Below, in pieces: positions 1 through 10,347 of a stretch of DNA of 10,347 nucleotides. How positions within the stretch are numbered: position 1 is the first letter of the stretch; the number at the start of each line of letters is the position of its first letter. The notes under the pieces were generated by a model that saw only the letters and a program-made list of their open reading frames with translations, ran no database searches and was not told where the DNA came from. Origin of the DNA: a virus (taxonomy: Duplodnaviria > Heunggongvirae > Uroviricota > Caudoviricetes); the IMG/VR virus record IMGVR_UViG_2529293213_000037, one strand, 5' to 3'. The position numbers were made by a program, and so were the translations under genes.

Positions 1-213
1 GGCAGGGCGGGGTATGCCGGGTTTATCCTCGCAGACAATAAATTTATAAGCGCAGTCCTGAGCTGCCGGGAATTGCTCCAGAAATTGCCAGTGAAATTTT
101 GCGCGTGCGCGACGCTCATCACCGGCTTCAATGGCAGTGGCCACCGCAACAGCGCTATCTTCTTTTATGGCCTGTTCGTCAGGAATAGCAGCGCAAATAA
201 AGATTTTACTCAT
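1..213 (-). CDS. Hypothetical protein, N-terminal 71 codons only; gene continues past the left edge of the window
   Basis: ATG at 213-211 on the minus strand opens a frame with no stop to position 1 (MSKIFICAAIPDEQAIKEDSAVAVATAIEAGDERRARAKFHWQFLEQFPAAQDCAYKFIVCEDKPGIPRPA...). GAGGT lies 9 nt upstream. By synteny it sits where ydfE sits downstream of ydfD in Qin-type operons, but I do not recognise the protein. Confidence 0.5.
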   Translation of the reverse strand, partial: MSKIFICAAIPDEQAIKEDSAVAVATAIEAGDERRARAKFHWQFLEQFPAAQDCAYKFIVCEDKPGIPRPA

Positions 214-306
214 TGTGTTTTAACCTCATTACAGATTTAAGGGTGAACAAATCCCTGCCATTGCTGGCATATAAAAATGAAACCGGATATTAATTACGGT
301 GCTGTT

Positions 307-498
307 TTAAAGTCCTGCCGGTATTTCGTTATTATTAGTGTGAGTAGTTTTATCTACCGGATAACAGTTACCGGGAATTTTTTGTTCTGCTGCTGCAGCC
401 ATGCATTCTTTCATTGAACCGTATAAGCCAGTCACCAGCTCAAGAGATTCGCCGGAAACAAGATAAACTGTCAGAACGAGTGCAAATGTTGTATTCAT
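307..498 (-). CDS. ydfD: Small membrane protein, YdfD-like (63 aa; Qin-type lysis protein family)
   Basis: 63-aa ORF with an N-terminal hydrophobic segment (TTFALVLTVYLVSG). Its ATG overlaps the stop of the upstream DicB-like gene (ATGA overlap at 495-498). AAGGA Shine-Dalgarno 8 nt upstream. Size and position immediately after dicB match YdfD from memory. Confidence 0.6.
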   Translation of the reverse strand: MNTTFALVLTVYLVSGESLELVTGLYGSMKECMAAAAEQKIPGNCYPVDKTTHTNNNEIPAGL

Positions 499-683
499 TG
501 TTTATATCCTTTTTGCAGCAGGTCCAGACGAGCCAGCATTGAAGGAATGCATACTTCATTTAACAGGTCCTGCTCGAGTTTTCTCTGCTTAATGGCGTCT
601 TCAATAAATGTTTTGTCTCCAGTGATAACGCCAATTTCGAAACGAAGTTCAGACGTGCTGGCATTACATGATAACTTTTCCAT
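495..683 (-). CDS. dicB: DicB-like cell-division inhibitor (62 aa, MinC-activating family)
   Basis: Internal ATG at 683-681 with GAGGA 7 nt upstream gives a 62-aa product (MEKLSCNASTSELRFEIGVITGDKTFIEDAIKQRKLEQDLLNEVCIPSMLARLDLLQKGYKQ) that matches DicB as I recall it (FEIGV, FxEDAIxKRK, SMLARL). The longer 98-aa ORF in the track has no RBS and is probably an upstream extension artefact. It lies about 180 bp downstream of the DicF-like RNA. Confidence 0.7.
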   Translation of the reverse strand: MEKLSCNASTSELRFEIGVITGDKTFIEDAIKQRKLEQDLLNEVCIPSMLARLDLLQKGYKQ

Positions 684-863
684 TATCGCGTCCTCAACAA
701 TGAATTTTGTGATGCGGTGCCTGGTGCCTCCAGGTGACGTTAACCAGTTAACAATTAACGCCGGATACAGAGCATTCTCGTTACTCAGCAAATGACCGCT
801 TTACCGATTTAACTGTTCCGCGTGCGCTGAGCCGCATTCACCGCATCACAAAATTCACTTTTA

Positions 864-920
864 AAAAAGGGCGGCAGAGCAGTTACGGAGTAAAACTGAT
901 ACCGCCAAATGTCACCAGAA
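864..920 (-). ncRNA. dicF: DicF-like small RNA (ftsZ-targeting sRNA of the dicB operon), including its intrinsic terminator
   Basis: The minus-strand sequence AUUCUGGUGACAUUUGGCGGUAUCAGUUUUACUCCGUAACUGCUCUGCCGCCCUUUUUU matches my recollection of DicF with about 3 mismatches. It ends in a GC-rich stem plus U-tract. Ends are approximate (+/- 3 nt). Confidence 0.7.
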
Positions 921-1256
921 TATTGATAACAGAGGGCGTTGCAGCGGGGTTGTCACTTAAGCGTATGGTCAACCTGACAACCCGGTGTCCTCAACGGGGA
1001 AAGAATAACCCCGCCATACTTACCGCCGCGCCATTTCGCGGATTGCCACAACCGGAAGCGCACGGTCGAATTAAATTTAACGACGGCTCTAAGGGAGAAG
1101 GACTTCGCCGTGCACTTTCGTGTTATGCCCTGACTTTTCAGGGATATATCCTTTCAGTAAACTGTCAGTGCCGGATTCTTATCTGTGTCCGGCGCACGAC
1201 CACACGTAGCAGCGTGTTGGTCTCCATTTTTAATTCAGCCCTTAATGGAGGATAAA

Positions 1257-1442
1257 ATGCCAAACAAACCATGCCCTGCCTGTAACGCTCTTTCTGGCTT
1301 TTTAGAGAAGGGCGGTTATTACATTTTTAACTGTCCAGAACATGTTGAATTTCATATATCAAAACTTGACAGTATCATTACAAAGCCAAATCAGTATCAG
1401 TCTGATTTACTGAATAAAGAGTTAAACGCCGCCCGAGATTAA
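1257..1442 (+). CDS. Small zinc-ribbon-like protein (61 aa; CxxC ... CxxH), encoded antisense within the dicB-type operon
   Basis: ATG at 1257 preceded by GGAGGA (4-nt spacer). Product MPNKPCPACNALSGFLEKGGYYIFNCPEHVEFHISKLDSIITKPNQYQSDLLNKELNAARD has a CPAC ... CPEH pattern typical of a zinc ribbon. Not recognised as a named gene. Confidence 0.4.
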   Translation: MPNKPCPACNALSGFLEKGGYYIFNCPEHVEFHISKLDSIITKPNQYQSDLLNKELNAARD

Positions 1443-1479
1443 GGGCGTAGTGGCCCATTAAAAATATTGCAAAGACCAA

Positions 1480-1632
1480 CTATTGTTGAACTGGATTAAA
1501 CCAGTAATTCTCTATTGCTCTTATTGTTACCATCGGATGATTGCCGGGGGTTATTTTAAGTTCGGGAGGAAAAGGCTCTCCATCAGCAGCCATCATTGAG
1601 TATGTGAAATCCGCCGACGCAGTCCCTTTCAT
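1480..1632 (-). CDS. Either a 50-aa translationally coupled small ORF or the C-terminal part of the frameshifted upstream gene
   Basis: ATG at 1632-1630 overlaps the upstream stop (ATGA). The same frame is open upstream back to about 1838 without an ATG, which suggests a fusion with 1629-2018 after a -1 shift. Product ...MKGTASADFTYSMMAADGEPFPPELKITPGNHPMVTIRAIENYWFNPVQQ. Confidence 0.35.
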   Translation of the reverse strand: MKGTASADFTYSMMAADGEPFPPELKITPGNHPMVTIRAIENYWFNPVQQ

Positions 1633-2018
1633 GATAATTCCGAATTTTTCAAGTAATGAGAGCAGTTCCGGTAATCCTGTGTCATCTGAATAACTTTCCT
1701 CATAGAAAGAAGCGATTGCCGCAGGAGATGACAGTTCTCGCTCTGCAATTTTTTTGTAGTTTTCCAGAATTCTTTTTTTGAATACTTTTCCTCGACATGA
1801 AAACCCATCACCGAGGCAATCCGCTTTGCAGTTTCTTCAGTATTCTGGTTGTTTGTTACCGAAACAGAGTACAATCCGGTAAACGCATCGCGCACATTAC
1901 GAGCCATATTATCAATGTATTTCTTCGTTGCAGATTCTAATTCAACTTCGTTCAGACGTTGGTGAAGTGCATGTGCTGCAATTTCCTGGATTTCTTTTAG
2001 TAAATCTTTAAATTCCAT
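1629..2018 (-). CDS. Hypothetical early-left operon protein at the ydfC position; annotated frame of 129 aa, but probably frameshifted at an A7 tract
   Basis: ATG at 2018 with GGAG 7 nt upstream. N-terminal part (MEFKDLLKEIQEIAAHALHQRLNEVELESATKKYIDNMARNVRDAFTGLYSV...) looks like real coding. After the A7 run (minus strand of 1773-1779) the annotated frame uses rare codons (AGG, CGG x2) while the -1 frame stays open to 1480 and reads more protein-like. Confidence 0.55.
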   Translation of the reverse strand: MEFKDLLKEIQEIAAHALHQRLNEVELESATKKYIDNMARNVRDAFTGLYSVSVTNNQNTEETAKRIASVMGFHVEEKYSKKEFWKTTKKLQSENCHLLRQSLLSMRKVIQMTQDYRNCSHYLKNSELS

Positions 2019-2029
2019 CTTTAACTCCG

Positions 2030-2158
2030 TTAGTCGTTAGATTTTGCCGAACTGGAAAGCGCCTGTTTAAACTCACTGAAGCTGAGAGCTTCCTCGCCTT
2101 CGGCAAGGCCTTCGAAGTATTCTTCGTAAGCCTTTTCCATGATTGTGTCGAAATCCAT
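2030..2158 (-). CDS. ydfB: YdfB-like small protein (42 aa)
   Basis: ATG at 2158-2156, one nt after the ydfA-like stop. Product MDFDTIMEKAYEEYFEGLAEGEEALSFSEFKQALSSSAKSND. Below the 60-aa cut-off of the ORF track. Size (42 aa) and position match YdfB of the Qin dicB operon. Confidence 0.5.
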   Translation of the reverse strand: MDFDTIMEKAYEEYFEGLAEGEEALSFSEFKQALSSSAKSND

Positions 2159-2159
2159 A

Positions 2160-2315
2160 TCACTCACCTGAGTTTCTTTCCAGCCAGCGACGGGCACCAT
2201 TTTCGGTTTTAAACGTTTTGCTTTTGGTATACGTCATCGCGGTGAATGTACCGTCCTGGTTGGGAAACACGCCGTACACCAGAGATTCGTTGTTGCCAAG
2301 ATCGATAGTATCCAT
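2160..2315 (-). CDS. ydfA: YdfA-like small protein (51 aa)
   Basis: ATG at 2315-2313 with GAGGT 4 nt upstream. Product MDTIDLGNNESLVYGVFPNQDGTFTAMTYTKSKTFKTENGARRWLERNSGE. First gene after the second operator/promoter. Size and position match YdfA. Confidence 0.6.
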   Translation of the reverse strand: MDTIDLGNNESLVYGVFPNQDGTFTAMTYTKSKTFKTENGARRWLERNSGE

Positions 2316-2501
2316 GTTGACCTCATTTCCCCTTAACGCCGGGTAGCGGAACAAAAACCTGCTGCATAGTTATTAAAGTTGAACCCTGCCGTCATGTTCA
2401 TACGCCTCGGGCTGGCTACTTACCCCCTGACCACTGCTTGGTAACTCGAAGTATTGCCCGGCGTTCTGTGGGGCGGGGTGGGTGGTTGGTGTATGTAATC
2501 T

Positions 2502-2540
2502 ACAATAAAAAACTGTTTTTGTGTCAACAGTTTTTAATTG
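2502..2540. promoter_or_regulatory. Operator-like palindrome (second copy) overlapping a consensus -35 TTGACA on the minus strand; candidate repressor-controlled promoter of the dicB-type operon
   Basis: ACAATAAAAAACTGTT-(spacer)-AACAGTTTTTAATTG. The left arm is identical over 16 nt to the site at 3537-3552. The revcomp of 2522-2527 is TTGACA. It lies just downstream of the ParE terminator and about 190 nt upstream of the ydfA-like gene. Confidence 0.5.
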
Positions 2541-2550
2541 TTGTTTTGGG

Positions 2551-2574
2551 CAAAAAAATCCCTCGAAAGAGGGA
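2551..2574 (-). terminator. Rho-independent terminator ending the repressor-antitoxin-toxin operon
   Basis: Minus-strand hairpin UCCCUC-UUUC-GAGGGA followed by U7 (revcomp of A2552-A2558), about 20 nt after the ParE stop. Confidence 0.55.
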
Positions 2575-2592
2575 GTATGAAAATTGTTCAAC

Positions 2593-2880
2593 TCAGATAG
2601 AGAAGGGAAATTGTCGCCGAGAATGTGTCACGCTTACAATCTCAATGCTTGAAGCAGCTACTCTGTACAGGATTATGTAGTTAGGGTGGGTCACGATCTC
2701 TCTCAATCCAGAAACCCGTTCGCTTGGTGGATATAAGTACGGATGCTCAGATAGAGGTAATACCGATGTTTCAATGCGTATTTTTAGTCTACGTGCTGCC
2801 GGTGGGTTCTCCTTGGCGATGTAAGTTATGATCTGGCGCAAATCATCGCGAGCAGACGGTAGCCATAAAATGGGTAACAT
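2593..2880 (-). CDS. parE: ParE/RelE-superfamily toxin (95 aa), type II toxin-antitoxin system
   Basis: Product MLPILWLPSARDDLRQIITYIAKENPPAARRLKIRIETSVLPLSEHPYLYPPSERVSGLREIVTHPNYIILYRVAASSIEIVSVTHSRRQFP... has the ParE-family hallmarks. Its start overlaps the stop of the upstream antitoxin gene by 1 nt (TAATG). Confidence 0.8.
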   Translation of the reverse strand: MLPILWLPSARDDLRQIITYIAKENPPAARRLKIRIETSVLPLSEHPYLYPPSERVSGLREIVTHPNYIILYRVAASSIEIVSVTHSRRQFPFSI

Positions 2881-3071
2881 TACTCGCTCTTGTTAGTTAC
2901 AGCAATTTGAGCAATAAGATTTTCCATTTCAGCCATTACCTCGTCATGTGGAATTGCGGGGCGAGTGTCTGCAAGGCTTGACGTTACTTTAGTGCGCAAC
3001 CATTCGTTGTAACTGTTTTCTTGTTCGGTAGTTTCGAATTCTGAAACTATCGGAGAAAGGGCTGTACCCAT
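2880..3071 (-). CDS. paaA: Antitoxin (63 aa) of the three-component ParE system, PaaA-like
   Basis: Product MGTALSPIVSEFETTEQENSYNEWLRTKVTSSLADTRPAIPHDEVMAEMENLIAQIAVTNKSE. GAGGAG Shine-Dalgarno 7 nt upstream. Sits 27 nt after the repressor stop and is directly coupled to the ParE gene. Size and sequence resemble the PaaA2 antitoxin from memory. Confidence 0.7.
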   Translation of the reverse strand: MGTALSPIVSEFETTEQENSYNEWLRTKVTSSLADTRPAIPHDEVMAEMENLIAQIAVTNKSE

Positions 3072-3098
3072 GGCATAACTCCTCTTCTTGTACTGTGG

Positions 3099-3500
3099 TC
3101 ACGCCCGGCGGCTTTTTTGTGCCGCCAGCCACCTAGCAATGGTTTCTTCCATTGATTTTTTCTTGTCTTTGATTTCTTGAAGCATTTTTTCTTGGTCTTC
3201 CTCAGGAAACGCACTAAAAGCTTGGAGCAGTTCGCGTTGGCGAGGACCAATTTTCATCGTGTCAGGGGTGAAAATTTGCTCACACTCTTCAGGAGGCAAT
3301 AAAAACCAATGCAATGGATGCCCTGAAACCTCAACCAGTTTATCCAAACTTGAGGCTTTAGGTGTAGCCTTACCGCTGACCCATTGTTGAACAGTTTGTT
3401 GTGTCACACCAATTCTACGGGCAAGCTCAGCCTGGCTCCATCCAGTTTCCTGAAGAAGCTTGCTGATTCTGTACATAGATACTTCTAGGGCGCTCATCAT
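3099..3500 (-). CDS. XRE-family HTH repressor (DicA/RacR/PaaR-like, 133 aa); probable prophage immunity repressor and regulator of the TA operon
   Basis: N-terminal HTH (QAELARRIGVTQQTVQQWVSG) and a C-terminal domain resembling DicA. Divergent from the Cro-like gene. No Shine-Dalgarno before the ATG, and a TAAAAT -10-like hexamer sits about 7 nt upstream, so it may be leaderless. Confidence 0.8.
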   Translation of the reverse strand: MMSALEVSMYRISKLLQETGWSQAELARRIGVTQQTVQQWVSGKATPKASSLDKLVEVSGHPLHWFLLPPEECEQIFTPDTMKIGPRQRELLQAFSAFPEEDQEKMLQEIKDKKKSMEETIARWLAAQKSRRA

Positions 3501-3608
3501 TATTCAATTTTACAGGTAAATACTGTTAAAAGCATCACAATAAAAAACTGTTGATTGCATACAGTTTTTTATTGTAGGTTTTGCTTATAGTTTTTAGAGG
3601 AGGGCAAA
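3501..3608. promoter_or_regulatory. Divergent promoter/operator region between the repressor and the Cro-like gene; perfect 14-bp inverted repeat at 3538-3574
   Basis: CAATAAAAAACTGT-(9 bp)-ACAGTTTTTTATTG is a perfect palindrome. TATAGT -10-like hexamer at 3586-3591 on the plus strand and TAAAAT on the minus strand. Confidence 0.6.
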
Positions 3609-3881
3609 ATGCTAGATAGCACTCGCGAAAAAATTAGGCAGAAATACACTCAGGCTGAAATAGGTCGTTATATGGGGGTCGCTCAACAGACTGTTTGGCA
3701 ATGGTTTAGCTTTGGCGTTCCCCCAAAGCAGGTAATTCCGTTATGCCAACTAATGAAGTGGGAAGTTACCCCGCATGAAATCCGCCCAGATATTTATCCT
3801 AACCCAACCGACGGTTTACCTGTTGGATGTAAGGTTAACACATCAAATGCGCCGGAGTTGATTCATGAAAATCAAGCATGA
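3609..3881 (+). CDS. ydaS: Cro/CI-type HTH protein, YdaS-like (90 aa)
   Basis: GAGGAGGG Shine-Dalgarno. HTH (QAEIGRYMGVAQQTVWQWF) followed by the WEVTPHEIRPDIYPNPTDG motif typical of the YdaS family. Overlaps the downstream gene by 17 nt. Confidence 0.75.
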   Translation: MLDSTREKIRQKYTQAEIGRYMGVAQQTVWQWFSFGVPPKQVIPLCQLMKWEVTPHEIRPDIYPNPTDGLPVGCKVNTSNAPELIHENQA

Positions 3882-4290
3882 ACACATCCGCATGGCGATG
3901 AATGCCTGGGCGCATCCGGACGGCGAAAAAGTACCGGCTGCGAAAATTACCAAAGCGTATTTCGAGCTGGGAATGACGTTCCCGGAACTGTATGACGACA
4001 GCCATCCGGAAGCCATGGCTCGCAATACTCAGAAAATTTTCCGCTGGGTGGAGAAAGACACTCCTGATGCGGTTAAAAAAATTCAGGCGTTGTTACCAGC
4101 GATCGAAAAAGCGATGCCGCCTCCGCTGGTGGCCCGAATGCGCAGCCACAGTTCCGCTTATTTTCGGGAGTTGGTAGAGACGAAGGAACGGCTGGTGAAA
4201 GATATTGATGATTTCGTTGCATCAGCGATCGTTCTGTTCGATCAGATGAATCGTGGTGGCCCGGCAGGAAACACTCTGGCTGTGCATTAA
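3865..4290 (+). CDS. ydaT: YdaT-like protein (141 aa), the partner of YdaS in Rac-type prophages
   Basis: Starts MKIKHEHI..., with GGAG 7 nt upstream. Co-oriented with and overlapping the ydaS-like gene. Family assignment is from memory. Confidence 0.65.
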   Translation: MKIKHEHIRMAMNAWAHPDGEKVPAAKITKAYFELGMTFPELYDDSHPEAMARNTQKIFRWVEKDTPDAVKKIQALLPAIEKAMPPPLVARMRSHSSAYFRELVETKERLVKDIDDFVASAIVLFDQMNRGGPAGNTLAVH

Positions 4291-4303
4291 TTGGGTAATA
4301 AAT

Positions 4304-4813
4304 ATGAGTAATGACAAAAAATTGACACTGAGCGTTTACGAAAACAGTCCGCACATCTGGCGTGGCGGTTTATCTGATGTGGAGCTGGCAGAGTGGTTGA
4401 TACATAAAGCTAATGCGCTGCTCTGGCGTTTGTCAGCCAGAGAACAGCGCAAGGAAACCAGAATAAAGCTGGCTGATGCAGAAGCGTGTGCCGGGCTTAT
4501 TGAGGATTATACAAATCTTGGTATTTCTTCAGCAGAGAGTGATCCCATTCAGCCTCTGAGCAGGGAGTCAATCCAGCACGCTGGTTGTATGGCACATCTT
4601 GTAACTGCTCGTCAACATGAGGTGGGTATTGGATCACTTCCGGCGGGATATTCGCTGATTCCAGAGCTGGTTGAAGCAAGAAAATCAGTTCAGAAAAAGA
4701 GAGATGACGCACTTCAATTATTGAGAGAGCACTATGGCGCGATACCAGAATGCGAACAGCGTCGATACCCTGAAGGTTATGAATGGATGCAGTCTCTTTT
4801 TGAAGTTCGCTAA
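4304..4813 (+). CDS. Hypothetical phage early protein (169 aa)
   Basis: Long ORF co-oriented with the operon, product MSNDKKLTLSVYENSPHIWRGGLSDVELAEWLIHKANALLWRL.... Weak Shine-Dalgarno. The track places the start at a GTG at 4253 that overlaps the ydaT-like gene; the ATG at 4304 is preferred. Confidence 0.55.
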   Translation: MSNDKKLTLSVYENSPHIWRGGLSDVELAEWLIHKANALLWRLSAREQRKETRIKLADAEACAGLIEDYTNLGISSAESDPIQPLSRESIQHAGCMAHLVTARQHEVGIGSLPAGYSLIPELVEARKSVQKKRDDALQLLREHYGAIPECEQRRYPEGYEWMQSLFEVR

Positions 4814-5030
4814 TCAATATGTCGAGACGAAGGTATGTTTCGGCGCGCAGCCAGGCTCTGTAATCCGGGAGCATTTCGGGGCTGTTACACCAGCGGTTTG
4901 TTGCTGCAACATTTAATACATGAGCCTGATAAAGGCTTTTCAAAAAATACATGTCGAACCTCCTCTGGTTCTGTCGATTGGGAACCACAGATTATATCCG
5001 GAGGAAGGTTCGGCACCAGATGAGGTAGCC

Positions 5031-6122
5031 ATGCGTGATTACGCAAAAGTTTCTCCGCGATTCTGGCTGGGAGAAACGGGGAGAGAACTTAGAAAGGCGG
5101 GTGCAGAAGCGCAAGTTGTTGCTTTTTACCTGATGACATCCCCTCACGCAAATATGCTGGGTTTGTATTACCTGCCAGTTTTATACCTTGCTCATGAAAC
5201 CGGGCTTGGTCTGGAAGGGGCTTCAAAGGGGCTTAAAAGGGCTGTTGAAGCTGGTTTTTGTAGCTATGACCATGATGCAGAGATGGTCTGGGTCCATGAA
5301 ATGGCAGCCTGGCAGGTTGGGGAAACGTTGAAGCCTGGCGATAACCGTTGTGCAGGTGTCAGGAATGAGTATGCATCATTACCTGAAAACGCTTTTCTGT
5401 CAGTGTTTTACGACAGATATAAAACGGATTTCCATCTGGATGTGAGGCGGAATAATAGCCGAAATTCGGTAAGGGGCTTCGAAGGGGCTTTTAAGGGGCT
5501 TCGAAGCCAAGAACAGGAACAGGAGCAGGAGAAAGAACAGGAACAGGACAAAAACACTATGGTTCATGGCAAAAAAAACACCACGAACCAGGCAGGGGAT
5601 GTTCAGACCGTCAATCCTGGTCAGCCAGCAGGCACGACACCGGAAGCCGATTCGGGCGCTGTGCAGCAGGTGATGACCGCAGGGTCGGAGCAATCACACC
5701 AACTGCAGCAGCCTGAAGCCGATTCCGCCATTCAGCGGGAAGCCGATCGGGTAGTCCCGGAAAGCACCGGGCAGTCTGTGGGACGAGTGGATTATCCGGA
5801 TGTGTTCGAACAGGTCTGGCGGGAATACCCGTTGCGTGCTGGGGCAAACCCGAAGAAATCCGCTTTCAGTGCCTGGAAGGCCAGATTGCGCGAGGGGGTG
5901 CCACCAGAGACCATGCTGGATGGTGTGAGGCGTTACGCGAGATACCTGGCGGCGACCGGGAAAGCGGGAACGGAATTTGTTCAGCGAGCGACGACGTTTT
6001 TTGGGCCGGACCGGAATTTTGAAAACCCCTGGTTGCTCCCGGTAAGCGGCACGAACAACCAGCGTTGTGTGAATCATATTTCTGAACCGGATACCGAAAT
6101 TCCGCCGGGATTCAGGGGGTGA
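5031..6122 (+). CDS. Phage replication initiator / replisome organiser (lambda O-like role), containing internal iteron-like repeats
   Basis: ATG at 5031 with GAGGT 4 nt upstream; an in-frame ATG at 4920 without a Shine-Dalgarno is an alternative start. It sits immediately upstream of the DnaC-like loader gene. The internal DNA repeats are translated as GLEGASKGLK and RGFEGAFKGLR, followed by a (QE)n linker. Confidence 0.7.
   Translation: MRDYAKVSPRFWLGETGRELRKAGAEAQVVAFYLMTSPHANMLGLYYLPVLYLAHETGLGLEGASKGLKRAVEAGFCSYDHDAEMVWVHEMAAWQVGETLKPGDNRCAGVRNEYASLPENAFLSVFYDRYKTDFHLDVRRNNSRNSVRGFEGAFKGLRSQEQEQEQEKEQEQDKNTMVHGKKNTTNQAGDVQTVNPGQPAGTTPEADSGAVQQVMTAGSEQSHQLQQPEADSAIQREADRVVPESTGQSVGRVDYPDVFEQVWREYPLRAGANPKKSAFSAWKARLREGVPPETMLDGVRRYARYLAATGKAGTEFVQRATTFFGPDRNFENPWLLPVSGTNNQRCVNHISEPDTEIPPGFRG
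5213..5244. repeat. Iteron-like direct repeats, cluster 1 (AAGGGGCTT-type, 10-bp spacing)
   Basis: AAGGGGCTTC / AAAGGGGCTT / AAAAGGGCTG in tandem inside the replication gene. Confidence 0.45.
5471..5508. repeat. Iteron-like direct repeats, cluster 2: three AAGGGGCTT copies at 11-bp spacing with a palindromic GCTTCGAAGC core; candidate origin
   Basis: AAGGGGCTT at 5471-5479, 5482-5490 and 5493-5501. GCTTCGAAGC is its own reverse complement. Followed by a repeat tract and an A-rich stretch (5550-5580). Confidence 0.55.
5511..5549. repeat. Tandem hexanucleotide repeat (GAACAG-like x6) encoding a QEQEQEQEKEQEQ linker
   Basis: gaacag gaacag gagcag gagaaa gaacag gaacag, seen directly; in frame within the replication gene. 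Confidence 0.8.
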
Positions 6123-6128
6123 TGTGGC

Positions 6129-6875
6129 ATGAAAAACATTGCGGCAGCCGGGGTTCTTGAACGTATTCGCAGACTTGCACCACAGGCGTCGGTTCCACCG
6201 TACCGGACGGTGGAGGAGTGGCGGGAATGGCAACTTGCTGAAGGACGAAAACGCAGCGAGGAGATTAACCGCCAGAATCACCAGTTGCGGGTGGAAAAAA
6301 TCCTGAATCGTTCGGGCATCCAGCCTCTGCACAGCAAATGCTCGTTTGCGAATTATCAGGTGCAGAACGACGGGCAAAAATACGCGCTGAGCCAGGCCAA
6401 ATCCATAGCTGACGAACTGATGACCGGGTGCACGAATTTTGTGTTCAGCGGTAAAACCGGCACCGGGAAAAATCACCTTGCAGCGGCGATGGGTAACCGG
6501 CTGATGGCGAAGGGGCGCAGCGTGATTATCGTCACCGTGTCTGATGTCATGAGCGTGTTGCATGACAGCTACGACAACGGCAAATCCGGGGAAAAATTTT
6601 TACAGGAGCTTTGCAGTGTTGATTTGCTGGTCCTGGATGAAATAGGCGTTCAGCGGGAGACGAAAAACGAGCAGGTGGTATTACACCAGATAATTGATCG
6701 CCGGACAGCATCACTGTGCAGTGTCGGGATGTTAACAAACCTGAATCATGCCGCAATGAGTACACTTCTTGGTGAGAGGATTATGGACCGCATGACCATG
6801 AACGGTGGTCGATGGGTGACGTTTAACTGGGATAGCTGGCGTCCAAATGTCAGCAATATGAGGGTTGTGAAGTAA
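6129..6875 (+). CDS. DnaC-like replicative helicase loader (AAA+ ATPase, 248 aa)
   Basis: Walker A FSGKTGTGKNHLAAA and Walker B LLVLDEIG. Starts 7 nt after the initiator gene stop. The motif resembles E. coli DnaC as I recall it. Confidence 0.85.
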   Translation: MKNIAAAGVLERIRRLAPQASVPPYRTVEEWREWQLAEGRKRSEEINRQNHQLRVEKILNRSGIQPLHSKCSFANYQVQNDGQKYALSQAKSIADELMTGCTNFVFSGKTGTGKNHLAAAMGNRLMAKGRSVIIVTVSDVMSVLHDSYDNGKSGEKFLQELCSVDLLVLDEIGVQRETKNEQVVLHQIIDRRTASLCSVGMLTNLNHAAMSTLLGERIMDRMTMNGGRWVTFNWDSWRPNVSNMRVVK

Positions 6876-6896
6876 TTTTGTCCGGAGGAAATTTTA

Positions 6897-7667
6897 ATGG
6901 AAACCGTATCTGACGCACTGAAAGCACTGAAAAAAGCCTCTTCACATGTGGTGGCAGCTCGCCTTGGAATCAGTCGTGAAGAGGCTGTCAACGAGCTGTG
7001 GGAACTCAAAATAAATGGCGTCGTTGATAAAACTGGTCACACCTGGTTTCTGGCTGGCGAAGGTGAATCCCGGGTAACCGAAGAGCGGCCAGTAAAATCT
7101 GAAGCACAGGATATGCTGACCGGGGAGGTCGAACAAAAAGTTACCGCAGACATGATGATTGAGTTTATCGGTCAGGATGGGGCTAAAACGTGTGAGGAAC
7201 TGGCGGGTAAGTTCGGTGTCAGTACTCGCAAGGTTGCTTCCACGCTGGCGGTGGTAACCGCAACGGGGCGGCTGGCACGCGTTAATCAGAACGGTAAATT
7301 TCGTTACTGCATGCCGGGCGATAATTTACCAGCAGAGCCGAAAGCCGCGCTGGTAACGGAAAGTGATGGTAAGGCCTTTCCTCAGCCAGCAGGTGCTGCG
7401 TTACCAGTCCGGGAAGCCGCAACACAGGAAGAAATTAAAACAGAAACTGTGGCGGACATTGTGCAGCCGTTGCCATCGTTTACCGAAACGCAAGCAGATG
7501 AGCTGATTTTTCCGTCCCTTCGCAGGGCAAACCTGGCGCTGCGCAGGGCGAAAAGTGATGTTCAGAAGTGGGAGCGAGTCTGCGCCGCGCTGCGGGAGCT
7601 GAACAAGCACCGGGATATTGTTCGACAGATTACTGATTCTTCCCGCCGTGTTGTATCGGAAAAGTGA
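6897..7667 (+). CDS. Hypothetical phage protein (256 aa), possibly with two winged-helix-like segments
   Basis: GGAGGA Shine-Dalgarno 7 nt upstream. Co-oriented and tightly packed with neighbours. Product METVSDALKALKKASSHVVAARLGISREEAVNELWELK.... Confidence 0.6.
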   Translation: METVSDALKALKKASSHVVAARLGISREEAVNELWELKINGVVDKTGHTWFLAGEGESRVTEERPVKSEAQDMLTGEVEQKVTADMMIEFIGQDGAKTCEELAGKFGVSTRKVASTLAVVTATGRLARVNQNGKFRYCMPGDNLPAEPKAALVTESDGKAFPQPAGAALPVREAATQEEIKTETVADIVQPLPSFTETQADELIFPSLRRANLALRRAKSDVQKWERVCAALRELNKHRDIVRQITDSSRRVVSEK

Positions 7668-7682
7668 TTGCCGGAGGCGCTT

Positions 7683-8096
7683 ATGGCAAAAGTATTTACA
7701 CAGGAAGAGCGGGAAAAAATTAAAGGGCAGGTTGTTGAGCTAGTACGCCGGAGTGGGCGCGAGACGTTACGGCAACTGGAAGCCAAGACAGGTGCGACAA
7801 GATATCTGATGAGCGTTCTTGCCAGAGAGCTGGTTGCCAGTGGCGATGTATACAACTCTGGTTACGGGTTATTCCCATCTGAACAGGCTCGTAAGGACTG
7901 GCAAAACGCCCGCAAAAAACTATCGAGGGCAAAACTGAAGAAACCGGTTGTGGTTGATCCTGACCTTATCTGGTCATTACCAGACGGAGAAATACGCCGC
8001 TATGACAGGCAATTGAACATAATTTGTAGTGAGTGCCGTAACAGTGAAGTGATGCAGCGAGTTTTGATATTTTACACAGGAGTAATGATGGAATAG
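7683..8096 (+). CDS. Hypothetical phage protein (137 aa)
   Basis: ATG at 7683 with GGAGG 5 nt upstream (the track starts at a TTG at 7668). Product MAKVFTQEEREKIKGQVVELVRRSGRETLRQLEAKTGATRYLMSVLARELVASGD.... Confidence 0.6.
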   Translation: MAKVFTQEEREKIKGQVVELVRRSGRETLRQLEAKTGATRYLMSVLARELVASGDVYNSGYGLFPSEQARKDWQNARKKLSRAKLKKPVVVDPDLIWSLPDGEIRRYDRQLNIICSECRNSEVMQRVLIFYTGVMME

Positions 8097-8447
8097 TGAA
8101 AATAACATGAAACCTTTGGATTCTGGTGTTTCAGTGGATGGGAAAAGAGCAGATACATAGAAAATGAATAGCAATAATTCACAGTCTGGATGTTGTTTGT
8201 ATGCTTATAAAATGATCCTAGTATGCATTGCCGGAGTTGAATCAGCTCCAATGAAGAAACTGAGAGGAGTATTTAGAAGATAGCTAAATGGATGTAATTA
8301 TTAGTATCTAAAAAATAGTATTTTTGAAATGGGTCTAAGAACACAACAATGTACAAATGAGAAGTTATCTTTTAATATGTTCAAAGACCCATTAGGATTG
8401 ATATCAGTTATGTTAGCTAGATTGATAAAGTGATTACATATTTTCTG

Positions 8448-9221
8448 TTATATGCTGAAATGAATAATGCTATTCCAGAGTGCAGCAGAGAAAGTCTCCT
8501 GATGATTGAGCTCTGGAAATTGTACAATAGAAAAATTACTGTATTTTTCTGTCAAAATATTTCTCAAAACAGATTCCGCTTTGATGGCTTCAGGATATAA
8601 AGATGCGGAGTAATCAAGGCTAAGATTTCCGTTAAGCAAGCATATACTTTTAGTGTGCTTTGATTCTGATATATCATCTTTAATTATCTTGATGATTCTT
8701 TCATTCTGCCATAGAAGTGATGGTGCAGATATATAATAATAGTTAAAGCATGAATTATTTTTTAAGCAATCAAGCACAAAAATAGCACCTAGCGAGTGCC
8801 CCCATATACCGATTCTGGAACTGTTCGGAGCAATAGTACTAACCCATGGCATGATCTGAGTTAGTAATAATTCTCGGAAAGACTGGCTTCCTCCACCAGT
8901 AAAGTAGATCCATGCTGGTTTAGAGTTATCAACAATAGCATTTTCACCATCAGGAGTATAATCGTAAGCACGGCGATGAATGCTAAGGTTATTCCAAGAT
9001 TCATAACCAAGTGTAACTAACACTGGTGGATTGGGTAGTGCATCAATAACAGGCAGAATATCAGAAATGTAATTGTTGGCACTATTCCCATCAAGTATAT
9101 AAAGAGTTGCATTATTTTTTTTAATGTTTTTTGGAGTAAAAATACATATTTTATATTTGGTGTCATGGTTAATTGAGTTAAATATGCGTGTTTGACAATG
9201 AATGTCCATATGTTTAGTCAT
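8448..9221 (-). CDS. Alpha/beta-hydrolase, putative esterase (esterase D / Fes / IroE-like family), 257 aa; AT-rich cargo gene
   Basis: GGGGAG Shine-Dalgarno 5 nt upstream of the ATG. Nucleophile elbow GHSLG (IWGHSLGAIF), an LDGNS motif near the N-terminus and a C-terminal NHQET candidate catalytic His. No obvious signal peptide. Roughly 30-35% GC versus about 50% in flanking phage genes. Convergent with the phage operon. Confidence 0.8.
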   Translation of the reverse strand: MTKHMDIHCQTRIFNSINHDTKYKICIFTPKNIKKNNATLYILDGNSANNYISDILPVIDALPNPPVLVTLGYESWNNLSIHRRAYDYTPDGENAIVDNSKPAWIYFTGGGSQSFRELLLTQIMPWVSTIAPNSSRIGIWGHSLGAIFVLDCLKNNSCFNYYYISAPSLLWQNERIIKIIKDDISESKHTKSICLLNGNLSLDYSASLYPEAIKAESVLRNILTEKYSNFSIVQFPELNHQETFSAALWNSIIHFSI

Positions 9222-9825
9222 GCGTTCTCCCCATGAGCATTAAAGGATGCTTAAGATATGCTATGTCACTGATAAAAAATTTGTTGTGTGTGTTTAGTTA
9301 TTTTATCTACCTCCATTATGATTTAAGACTGATATATGTTATCAGCAAAGGTACATCGTTATTATTTTACCTGTCAATACATTTGATATTGATTATCGTT
9401 TACATCGCTTGCTTAGGAAATTGAAGGCAGGTAACTATCATGTCAATGAACTAACCCACAGTCTAACGTACTTCTTTCCCCAATCACCAACAACCAAATT
9501 CCTGTTATCACCACTGGGATTTTGGCGCAACTTCATGGTGCAGAGGTAAATAGCATCAAGCAAAATCTCTTTTTCCGTTGTTGTCCTTATGGGACGTCTG
9601 TCTTTCTGACCGATTTCATATTGGCGAGGTAATGGGAAGTTAAGTAGAATAGCTGCGGGTGCTTGAGGCTATCTGCCTCGGGCATGAACACCAACGGCAG
9701 ATAGAGAAAAGCCCCAGTTAACATTACGCGTCCTGCAAGACGCCTAACATTAATCTGAGGCTCAATCTATGAACGGCAAATCTAGGTTAGCCTCTTACGT
9801 GCCGAAAGGCAAGGAGAAGCAGGCT

Positions 9826-9981
9826 ATGAAGCAGCAAAAGGCGATGTTAATCGCCCTGATCGTCATCTGTTTAACCGTCATAGTGACGGCACTGGTAACG
9901 AGGAAAGACCTCTGCGAGGTACGAGTCCGAACCGGCCAGACGGAGGTCGCTGTCTTCACAGCTTACGAACCTGAGGAGTAA
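9826..9981 (+). CDS. hokD: Hok/Gef-family type I toxin (51 aa), closest to HokD (RelF)
   Basis: Product MKQQKAMLIALIVICLTVIVTALVTRKDLCEVRVRTGQTEVAVFTAYEPEE, about one substitution from HokD as I recall it. AAGGAG upstream. The track ORF (from 9769) is an in-frame N-terminal extension. No relBE-like ORFs upstream. Confidence 0.8.
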   Translation: MKQQKAMLIALIVICLTVIVTALVTRKDLCEVRVRTGQTEVAVFTAYEPEE

Positions 9982-10050
9982 GAGACCTGGCGGGGGAGAA
10001 ATCCCTCGCCACCTCTGATGAATCAGGCATCCTCAACGCACCCGCACTTA

Positions 10051-10074
10051 ACCCGCTTCGGCGGGTTTTGTTTG
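10051..10074 (+). terminator. Rho-independent terminator downstream of the hok-like gene
   Basis: ACCCGC-UUCG-GCGGGU hairpin (UUCG tetraloop) followed by UUUUGUUU. Confidence 0.6.
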
Positions 10075-10255
10075 CGCGCTGAATGCGCAGGGTGAAAAAT
10101 AACCATATATTTGATTATATACACAACAAAAAATAAAAGTCATTGTACCTGCACATTAAATAATCAAATATACGGCGTGAAATAAATATTTTTCAGATTA
10201 ATATTTTTGTCTCTATGTGGATATAACCGTTTGTACTTATAAACTCGGAGGCATC

Positions 10256-10347
10256 GTGGAAAAAATAAAGAAACTATTTAGTTGCAAATACGCAGTCATA
10301 CGTCGTGATGACCTGTCAGTTATAGTCGAAATGGATTACTTCCCTGA
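10256..10347 (+). CDS. Possible 5' end of a gene running off the right edge (GTG start)
   Basis: GGAGG 4 nt upstream of the GTG at 10256. Open frame VEKIKKLFSCKYAVIRRDDLSVIVEMDYFP... to the end of the window. Preceded by an AT-rich promoter-like region. Confidence 0.3.
   Translation, partial: MEKIKKLFSCKYAVIRRDDLSVIVEMDYFP

Follow-up and report, generated by a model that had tools for sequence, protein, structure and literature searches.

A probable homologue of the K-12 Qin dicBF operon, with its DicF-DicB-YdfD module intact, in prophage Sp4 of Escherichia coli O157:H7

Organization of the locus

The window analyzed here, a stretch of 10,347 nucleotides, carries on its minus strand a run of phage genes and RNA elements (Table 1). 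Read along that strand, an immunity repressor gene is followed by paaA and parE, a PL-like promoter region, ydfA, ydfB and a gene for a 129-aa protein, after which come a long leader (922-1200), the small RNA DicF with its terminator, dicB and a ydfD-like gene. Positions 1-10073 of the window match prophage Sp4 of E. coli O157:H7 Sakai at 99.98% identity, while the last 274 nt differ from both Sakai and TR01. Sp4 adjoins yccA in Sakai, where DicB corresponds to ECs_1059, the 63-aa protein encoded after it to ECs_1058 and the repressor to ECs_1069. Within the window, the 1051 nt from 250 to 1300, which hold the DicF-DicB-YdfD module, occur at 100% identity in many O157:H7 chromosomes.

Table 1. 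Features of the locus, with positions in window coordinates
Feature	Position	Strand	Basis or remark
ydfD-like gene, 63 aa, DUF1482	307..498	-	PF07358, hydropathy, K-12 comparison
dicB, 62 aa, cell-division inhibitor family	495..683	-	PF05358, NF049927, RefSeq
DicF-dicB spacer (dicB 5' UTR)	684..862	-	92-99% identical to K-12, variable patch excepted
DicF intrinsic terminator U-run (UUUUUU)	863..868	-	sequence, fold
DicF sRNA, 53 nt, homologous to K-12 b1574	869..921	-	RF00039 match, fold, K-12 comparison
RNA module immediately 5' of DicF, conserved and structured, predicted four-way junction	935..1056	-	conservation, covariation, fold
Further leader, 78% identical to K-12	1057..1200	-	long imperfect hairpin
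61-aa gene, phrog_10133	1257-1442	opposite strand	between 129-aa gene and DicF leader
129-aa protein gene at the place of YdfC	2018..1629	-	operon gene
ydfB	2158..2030	-	operon gene
ydfA	2315..2160	-	100% identical to K-12 YdfA
PL-like promoter region, TTGACA inside a 21-nt-arm palindromic operator	2497..2546	-	sequence
parE	2880..2593	-	3' of paaA
paaA	3071..2880	-	3' of repressor gene
Immunity repressor, 133 aa, HTH, PaaR-type	3099..3500	-	profile searches
OR-like operator, ACAATAAAAAACTGT-N9-ACAGTTTTTTATTGT	3537..3575		between repressor and cro-like genes

DicF and its terminator

The Rfam DicF family (RF00039) matches the minus strand from 920 to 869 over its full length (model positions 1-52 of 52), with 76.9 bits against a gathering cut-off of 48 bits and an E-value of 4.9e-16. 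DicF is taken here as 921..869, that is, the span of this match together with one 5' base from the K-12 annotation. In the MFE fold, nucleotides 1-15 are unpaired and form a 5' seed, and nucleotides 16-52 form a terminator hairpin of -15.5 kcal/mol that runs into UUUUUU, which bears out the DicF-like RNA with terminator proposed in an earlier note on this DNA. A consensus terminator scanner missed this terminator because the hairpin stem is interrupted and the loop is long, and the element was assessed by direct folding instead. DicF lies within the operon, 3' of the long leader and 5' of dicB, colinear with its K-12 counterpart in the Qin prophage.

Relative to the 53-nt K-12 dicF, exactly three of 53 nucleotides differ, in agreement with the earlier estimate of about three. 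T1A coincides with the 5' end that RNase E generates, G12A belongs to the 5' seed, and at the top of the inner stem G38A makes a U-A pair out of U-G. In K-12, most transcripts of the dicBF operon stop at the DicF terminator, and RNase III together with RNase E yields DicF species of 190 and 53 nt (PMC10448788); the sequences of the processing cleavage sites are conserved in the window. A megablast search with 59 nt of DicF returned this allele only, in 617 genomes, a number that is no census of DicF because megablast requires an exact word of 28 nt. RefSeq records annotate dicB at the Sp4 locus and leave dicF without annotation, and the assignment is for that reason useful for annotation.

An intrinsic terminator directly before two toxic genes invites the reading that the DicF hairpin is essentially an operon attenuator, which limits dicB and ydfD and releases an RNA without a role in trans at the Sp4 locus. 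The termination of most K-12 transcripts at this site (PMC10448788) and the quite different terminator hairpins that follow the same upstream module in related phages would suit such a role. However, the target-pairing loop and the 5' tail are near-identical to those of K-12, the structure-preserving G38A change included, and action of DicF in trans has been proven in K-12 by compensatory mutations (PMC5069750). We consider an attenuator devoid of any trans role very unlikely; attenuation and action in trans are in any case not mutually exclusive.

dicB and the ydfD-like gene

The 62-aa protein encoded 3' of DicF matches the DicB families of both Pfam (PF05358; 131.8 bits against a cut-off of 27, E-value 7e-39, positions 1-62 of 62) and NCBIfam (NF049927; 123.7 bits against a cut-off of 100, full length), and RefSeq likewise names the ORF 683..495 dicB. 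The program-made ORF that contains the gene begins with TTG at 791 and spans 98 aa; the K-12 start codon aligns with the ATG at 683, which has GAGGA 7 nt 5' of it. From the end of DicF (869) to this ATG there are 185 nt, U-run included, within which a 34-nt patch (772-805) departs from K-12. Positions 706-855 of this UTR match Rfam STnc100 below threshold, with 33.6 bits where the cut-off is 47. DicB is 55% identical to K-12 DicB, with a dN/dS of 0.54 (dS about 0.6). K-12 DicB acts on Z rings through MinC and ZipA (PMC6832061), and by homology we infer the same activity for Sp4 DicB; a search for a solved structure of any DicB on which to map the MinC/ZipA interface found none.

The gene after dicB encodes a 63-aa protein that matches DUF1482 (PF07358; 69.2 bits against a cut-off of 25, E-value 2.8e-19), the family to which K-12 YdfD also belongs, and is 63% identical to K-12 YdfD with a dN/dS of 0.35 (dS about 0.6). 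Its N-terminus is hydrophobic at residues 5-19, with a top 15-residue hydropathy of 1.66. The ATG at 498..496 overlaps the dicB TGA at 497..495 as ATGA, the same overlap as in K-12, and the proposal of a 62-aa DicB-like protein followed by a membrane protein of 63 aa coupled to it thus stands. K-12 YdfD binds and inhibits IspG and causes lysis (PMC8835842), and the Sp4 protein, as its homologue, may be expected to promote lysis in the same way. The 63-aa gene lies outside the interval 495-920 earlier assigned to the module, save for the 4-nt overlap; DicF, dicB and the 63-aa gene are all on the minus strand.

As a prophage Sp4 is defective (its integrase is frameshifted in TR01, and it carries IS elements in Sakai), and the matches might on that account be chance similarities or decayed remnants (pseudogenes). 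This can be given practically no weight. The E-values of the DicF, DicB and DUF1482 matches are incompatible with chance, both ORFs are full length and free of frameshifts, dN/dS is below 1, and 394 complete E. coli genome records contain positions 250-1300 of the window at 99% identity or more. The module is intact, as the earlier note had held: the full-length ORFs stand beside a full-length match to the DicF model.

Promoter, operators and repressor

The gap between parE and ydfA is 277 nt. A terminator-like hairpin lies 3' of parE at 2574..2559, and the PL-like promoter is located just downstream of it. A consensus promoter scanner did not call this PL-like promoter, whose -10 element is not clear-cut, and promoter-like sites were not found on the minus strand between 1553 and 921. 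The repressor is a distant homologue of DicA (28% identity over 111 aa, E-value 6e-12), and the ParE/PaaA toxin-antitoxin pair sits between its gene and the operon. A cro-like gene and a YdaT (cII-like) gene are divergent from the repressor gene. The operator palindrome at the OR-like position has 15-nt arms that are 100% complementary, and a near copy of it overlaps the TTGACA of the PL-like region, a predicted OL/OR arrangement. From this anatomy, repressor control of the operon appears well supported, as had been proposed, with a DicA homologue rather than DicA itself as the candidate regulator.

The opposite-strand 61-aa gene lies within this operon, and convergent transcription from it could lower read-through. 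At the other end, an exonuclease gene follows the 63-aa gene on the same strand and runs past the left edge of the window; it is intact in Sakai and TR01, at 2.4 kb, whereas its K-12 counterpart is the pseudogene ydfE. Because this exonuclease and then, in Sakai Sp4, xis and int follow on the same strand, the module is not the last on that strand. The earlier placement of the module at the distal end of the operon does not strictly fit this gene order; for K-12, however, it agrees with the transcripts, where nothing longer than ydfABC-dicF-dicB-ydfD was detected (PMC10448788).

Comparison with known systems

The closest parallel is the dicBF operon of K-12 Qin (ydfABC-dicF-dicB-ydfD), which has the same gene order, an identical YdfA and the same ATGA overlap. 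The leader module, DicF and the dicB 5' UTR are 92-99% identical between the two, and in both a DicA-type repressor gene lies upstream together with a divergent cro-like gene. The place of YdfC is taken in the window by the opposite-strand 61-aa gene and the 129-aa protein, the latter without similarity to YdfC. The repressor is only distantly related to DicA, the operators are other ones, and the paaA-parE pair is extra. Taken together, the segment is very probably the DicF-DicB-YdfD part of the Sp4 early-left (PL-type) operon, homologous to K-12 Qin dicBF. This fixes the identity of the window as the Sp4 early-left arm, which carries an intact version of a toxic module for division inhibition and lysis.

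Identity to K-12 is distributed unevenly along this segment. Among non-coding parts, it is 98.4% in the module upstream of DicF, 98.9% in the dicB UTR by the start codon and about 94% in the spacer between ydfD and the exonuclease gene, against 72% for the dicB and 75% for the ydfD coding sequence. Such conserved non-coding sequence beside diverged genes could indicate selection on the RNA elements, or just as well the familiar mosaicism of lambdoid phages with its conserved junctions.

The control region resembles a second system, paaR2-paaA2-parE2/ydaS-ydaT of CP-933P, a sister prophage in O157:H7 EDL933. The layout is the same, with a leaderless-type repressor gene followed by antitoxin and ParE toxin genes, a divergent cro-like gene and then a YdaT (cII-like) gene, and a second PL-like promoter beyond parE. 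In CP-933P, PaaR2 and YdaS repress PL933P by a factor of about 100, and a homologous system has been noted on CP-933M (PMC8630535). Unlike the published GTTTAGTAA repeats of CP-933P, the operator in the window reads AAAAACTGT...ACAGTTTTT, and on this difference in sequence the immunity specificity of Sp4 would be expected to differ as well. Lambda Kil and Rac KilR are, like DicB, division inhibitors from repressor-controlled early-left operons of lambdoid phages that affect FtsZ, but they are proteins unrelated to DicB and are not known to act through MinC. The kil and dicB genes have been placed together in the literature (PMC8630535).

Pairing of DicF with its targets

Genetic work in K-12 assigns pairing with xylR to the DicF 5' end and pairing with ftsZ to its 3' region, the latter repressing ftsZ translation (PMC5069750). 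Full-length RNAduplex energies separated poorly from shuffled sequences, with shuffled DicF performing as well in 16 of 300 cases for ftsZ and nine of 300 for pchA, and the short, experimentally tested cores were therefore used instead. Nucleotides 24-37 of DicF are predicted to pair with positions -13 to 0 of ftsZ, at its ribosome-binding site, with -12.9 kcal/mol, a value shared by the Sp4 and K-12 alleles; T1A, G12A and G38A all fall outside this core. G12A, by contrast, interrupts the 13-bp DicF-xylR duplex (xylR +8 to +20) midway with an A-C mismatch, and the predicted energy changes from -20.3 to -14.5 kcal/mol, so that not all K-12 targets of DicF need be kept. The dicF copies of EHEC, four of them according to a review (PMC7873438), may thus be non-equivalent, the copy studied here having kept the ftsZ core and being predicted to pair more weakly with xylR.

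These observations bear on whether the function of the module, intact as it is, has shifted in EHEC, with DicF mainly regulating virulence and metabolism, DicB acting mainly in superinfection exclusion, and division inhibition and lysis reduced to a minor role or lost. Several points are in keeping with such a shift: the number of EHEC dicF copies, the weakened xylR pairing, the divergence of DicB and YdfD from their K-12 homologues, and the reports in reviews that DicF activates pchA and represses stx2A. pchA (ECs_1091) itself lies on Sp4, the same prophage as the DicF module. For DicB, a second role against ManYZ-dependent phages is known in K-12, where it blocks entry of their DNA (PMC6832061). 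Even so, a shifted function seems rather unlikely: the ftsZ-pairing core is identical to that of K-12, DicB is full length and above the NCBIfam cut-off for the family, and the ManYZ effect in K-12 itself requires the DicB-MinC interaction (PMC6832061), so that, as far as is known, the two roles of DicB cannot be separated. The location of a reported EHEC target on the same prophage is a small point of possible use.

Proposed working of the operon

With division inhibition and lysis retained as the preferred reading, the working of the Sp4 operon can be proposed by homology; we infer repression, processing and the three activities from experiments on K-12 and CP-933P. In the lysogen, the PaaR-type, DicA-like repressor would bind the palindromic operator that overlaps the promoter 5' of ydfA and keep the operon off. 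Upon derepression, a single transcript would run across ydfA, ydfB and the 129-aa gene and then through the conserved leader, with the majority of transcripts expected to go no further than the DicF terminator. RNase III and RNase E would trim these terminated transcripts to the 190-nt and 53-nt forms of DicF, which, together with Hfq, would pair with the ftsZ ribosome-binding site and lower FtsZ synthesis. Read-through RNA would encode DicB, which may bring MinC to the septum via ZipA and dissolve Z rings, and, through translational coupling to it, YdfD, which may inhibit IspG and cause lysis as in K-12. The published K-12 roles (DicF at ftsZ mRNA, DicB through MinC and ZipA, YdfD in lysis) match what the earlier note described as known biology, and the DicF-DicB-YdfD module is ordinary, already described biology to which nothing new is added.

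A structured RNA module upstream of DicF

The stretch of roughly 120-125 nt 5' of DicF is a separately conserved module. It makes up the 5' portion of the 190-nt DicF species already known, and the hairpin of the further leader surrounds the position of the K-12 RNase III cut that generates the 5' end of that species (PMC10448788). The module is predicted to fold into a four-way junction closed by GUUGUGGC/GCUGCAAC. It is 98% identical in PPompW and Stx2a phages, 91% identical in Stx2c phages, Ayreon and cdtI, and 76-81% identical in P1 and P7, and pattern scans of IMG/VR recovered 74 distinct homologues. Across 26 representatives, the 30 predicted pairs are paired in 95.9% of cells, versus 34-54% when slid, and six of the 30 are changed on both sides in this set of modest diversity. 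The thermodynamic z-score of the module (-1.14) is unremarkable, and the structure is supported by conservation with modest covariation only.

Rfam families matching the module were not found at E <= 5. A put-like antiterminator of the HK022 kind was considered, but nothing supports it: matches to the HK022 immunity (PL-nun) region are only 9-13 nt long and at chance level, and a four-way junction of about 120 nt does not resemble putL and putR, with two stem-loops in about 70 nt. Scans of the operon proteins against Pfam, PHROGs and NCBIfam detected no antiterminator families. A tRNA-like element was rejected, as ARAGORN finds none in the window.

Sequence 3' of the module is highly variable, with at least 10 types of terminator hairpin; an intrinsic terminator hairpin is nevertheless always present within about 10-40 nt, and two of the 13 variant loci scanned reach the Rfam DicF cut-off. 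P1 carries the module just 3' of its C1-controlled ban promoter, in a region annotated as 'dicF-like region', and its element ends in a different hairpin from that of Sp4 DicF. The hairpin of a P1-type contig fell below the Rfam DicF cut-off in a scan at the gathering threshold, and P1 itself gave no DicF match at E <= 1.

The combination of an upstream module with swappable 3' hairpins is the only part of the locus that might repay more work. Candidate roles for the module are a scaffold for processing, for stability or for read-through of the terminator. Tentatively, DicF may represent a single 'cassette' within a larger and so far undescribed family of modular RNAs in which the four-way-junction domain is joined to variable terminator hairpins, a possibility to which we assign less than even chances. 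If this is true, the domain would be such a scaffold, and phages could swap the seed-and-terminator part and thereby retarget host mRNAs.

Conserved RNA module upstream of DicF

Immediately 5' of DicF lies a structured RNA module common to Qin- and Sp4-type prophages, the Stx2a, Stx2c and cdtI phages, and the phages P1 and P7. Its alignment (A6) supports a predicted four-way junction with modest covariation, and an intrinsic terminator always follows just 3' of the module; the loci concerned are L004-L006 and L009-L168. A search of Rfam families returned no match for the module. Two candidate identities were also considered and rejected, as the module is neither HK022-put-like nor tRNA-like.

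The hairpin 3' of the module is highly variable, with at least 10 different seed-and-terminator types, and only 2 of 13 variant loci (L034, L131, L010, L165, L124, L114, L138, L106, L071, L048, L069, L137 and L147) reach the Rfam cut-off for DicF. In many of these loci the conserved dicB leader is still present after the variant hairpin. L012, L124 and L138 carry isrK and C4 antisense RNA downstream of the module in place of dicB.

The spacer between DicF and dicB (window 706-855, minus strand) scores 33.6 bits (E 8e-5) with the Rfam family STnc100, below that family's cut-off of 47. Intergenic regions in P1 and Ayreon likewise contain weak STnc100 matches short of the cut-off, at 23-33 bits, and the IMG/VR contig L106 carries two copies of STnc100 at full score.

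Features of the window accompanying the DicF operon
Feature	Window position	Strand	Details
Conserved structured RNA module, ~120 nt	935-1056	-	Directly 5' of DicF; alignment A6
61-aa gene, phrog_10133 (ECs_1061)	1257-1442	+	CPAC and C-P motifs
Paired long palindromic operators	2497-2546, 3537-3575		AAAAACTGT ... ACAGTTTTT; arms 15-21 nt
Three-component toxin-antitoxin/immunity region	2593-3500, 3609-4290	-, +	
Alpha/beta-hydrolase gene, ECs_1077	8448-9221	-	AT-rich island with flanks, 7800-9600
hok/sok type I toxin-antitoxin	9657-9981	+	Rfam sok, 105.6 bits at 9657-9831

Sequence divergence and the DicF allele

Across window positions 310-1200, non-coding segments share 92-99% identity with the K-12 prophage Qin, whereas the dicB and ydfD coding sequences lying between them share only 72-75% (dS ~0.6). 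This excess of non-coding over coding conservation reflects either selection on the RNA elements or the conservation of recombination junctions within the lambdoid mosaic.

Within DicF itself, position 12 (window 910) is changed from G to A. The change is predicted to abolish the centre of the 13-bp DicF-xylR duplex, weakening it from -20.3 to -14.5 kcal/mol when paired with the K-12 xylR sequence, from which that of O157 may differ. The ftsZ-pairing core is unchanged in the G12A allele, and these duplex predictions suggest that target range may vary among the several EHEC dicF copies. According to reviews, DicF activates pchA, an EHEC virulence regulator. The pchA gene (Sakai NC_002695 1183365-1183679) lies outside the window on the same prophage, Sp4, ~18 kb from the dicF copy described here.

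The 61-aa gene is a moron-like insertion within the early-left operon, where it separates the 129-aa gene from the DicF leader and is encoded on the opposite strand. Transcription of this gene and of the DicF precursor would be convergent.

Immunity region and operators

The minus-strand genes of the immunity region encode a PaaR-type repressor, a PaaA2-family antitoxin and a ParE toxin, while the divergent plus-strand genes encode a cro-like protein of the YdaS type and the cII-like YdaT. The region is the Sp4/CP-933M counterpart of the previously studied switch in CP-933P, a sister prophage of O157:H7 EDL933, but its operators differ from those of CP-933P. The two operator palindromes stand 1 kb apart, the first at a PL-like and the second at an OR-like position, and differ by one base in the spacer.

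Right-hand part of the window

A mechanically called ORF of 70 aa (9769-9981) overlaps the Rfam sok match, and its 3' part corresponds to the RefSeq-annotated hokD toxin. The last 274 nt (10074-10347) match neither Sakai nor TR01 after 10 kb of 99.98% identity, indicating that the source strain departs from both just past hok. The alpha/beta-hydrolase gene, which looks like a moron, lies in an island with a GC content of 0.35, compared with 0.44-0.56 across most other parts of the window, and is oriented opposite to the replication genes.
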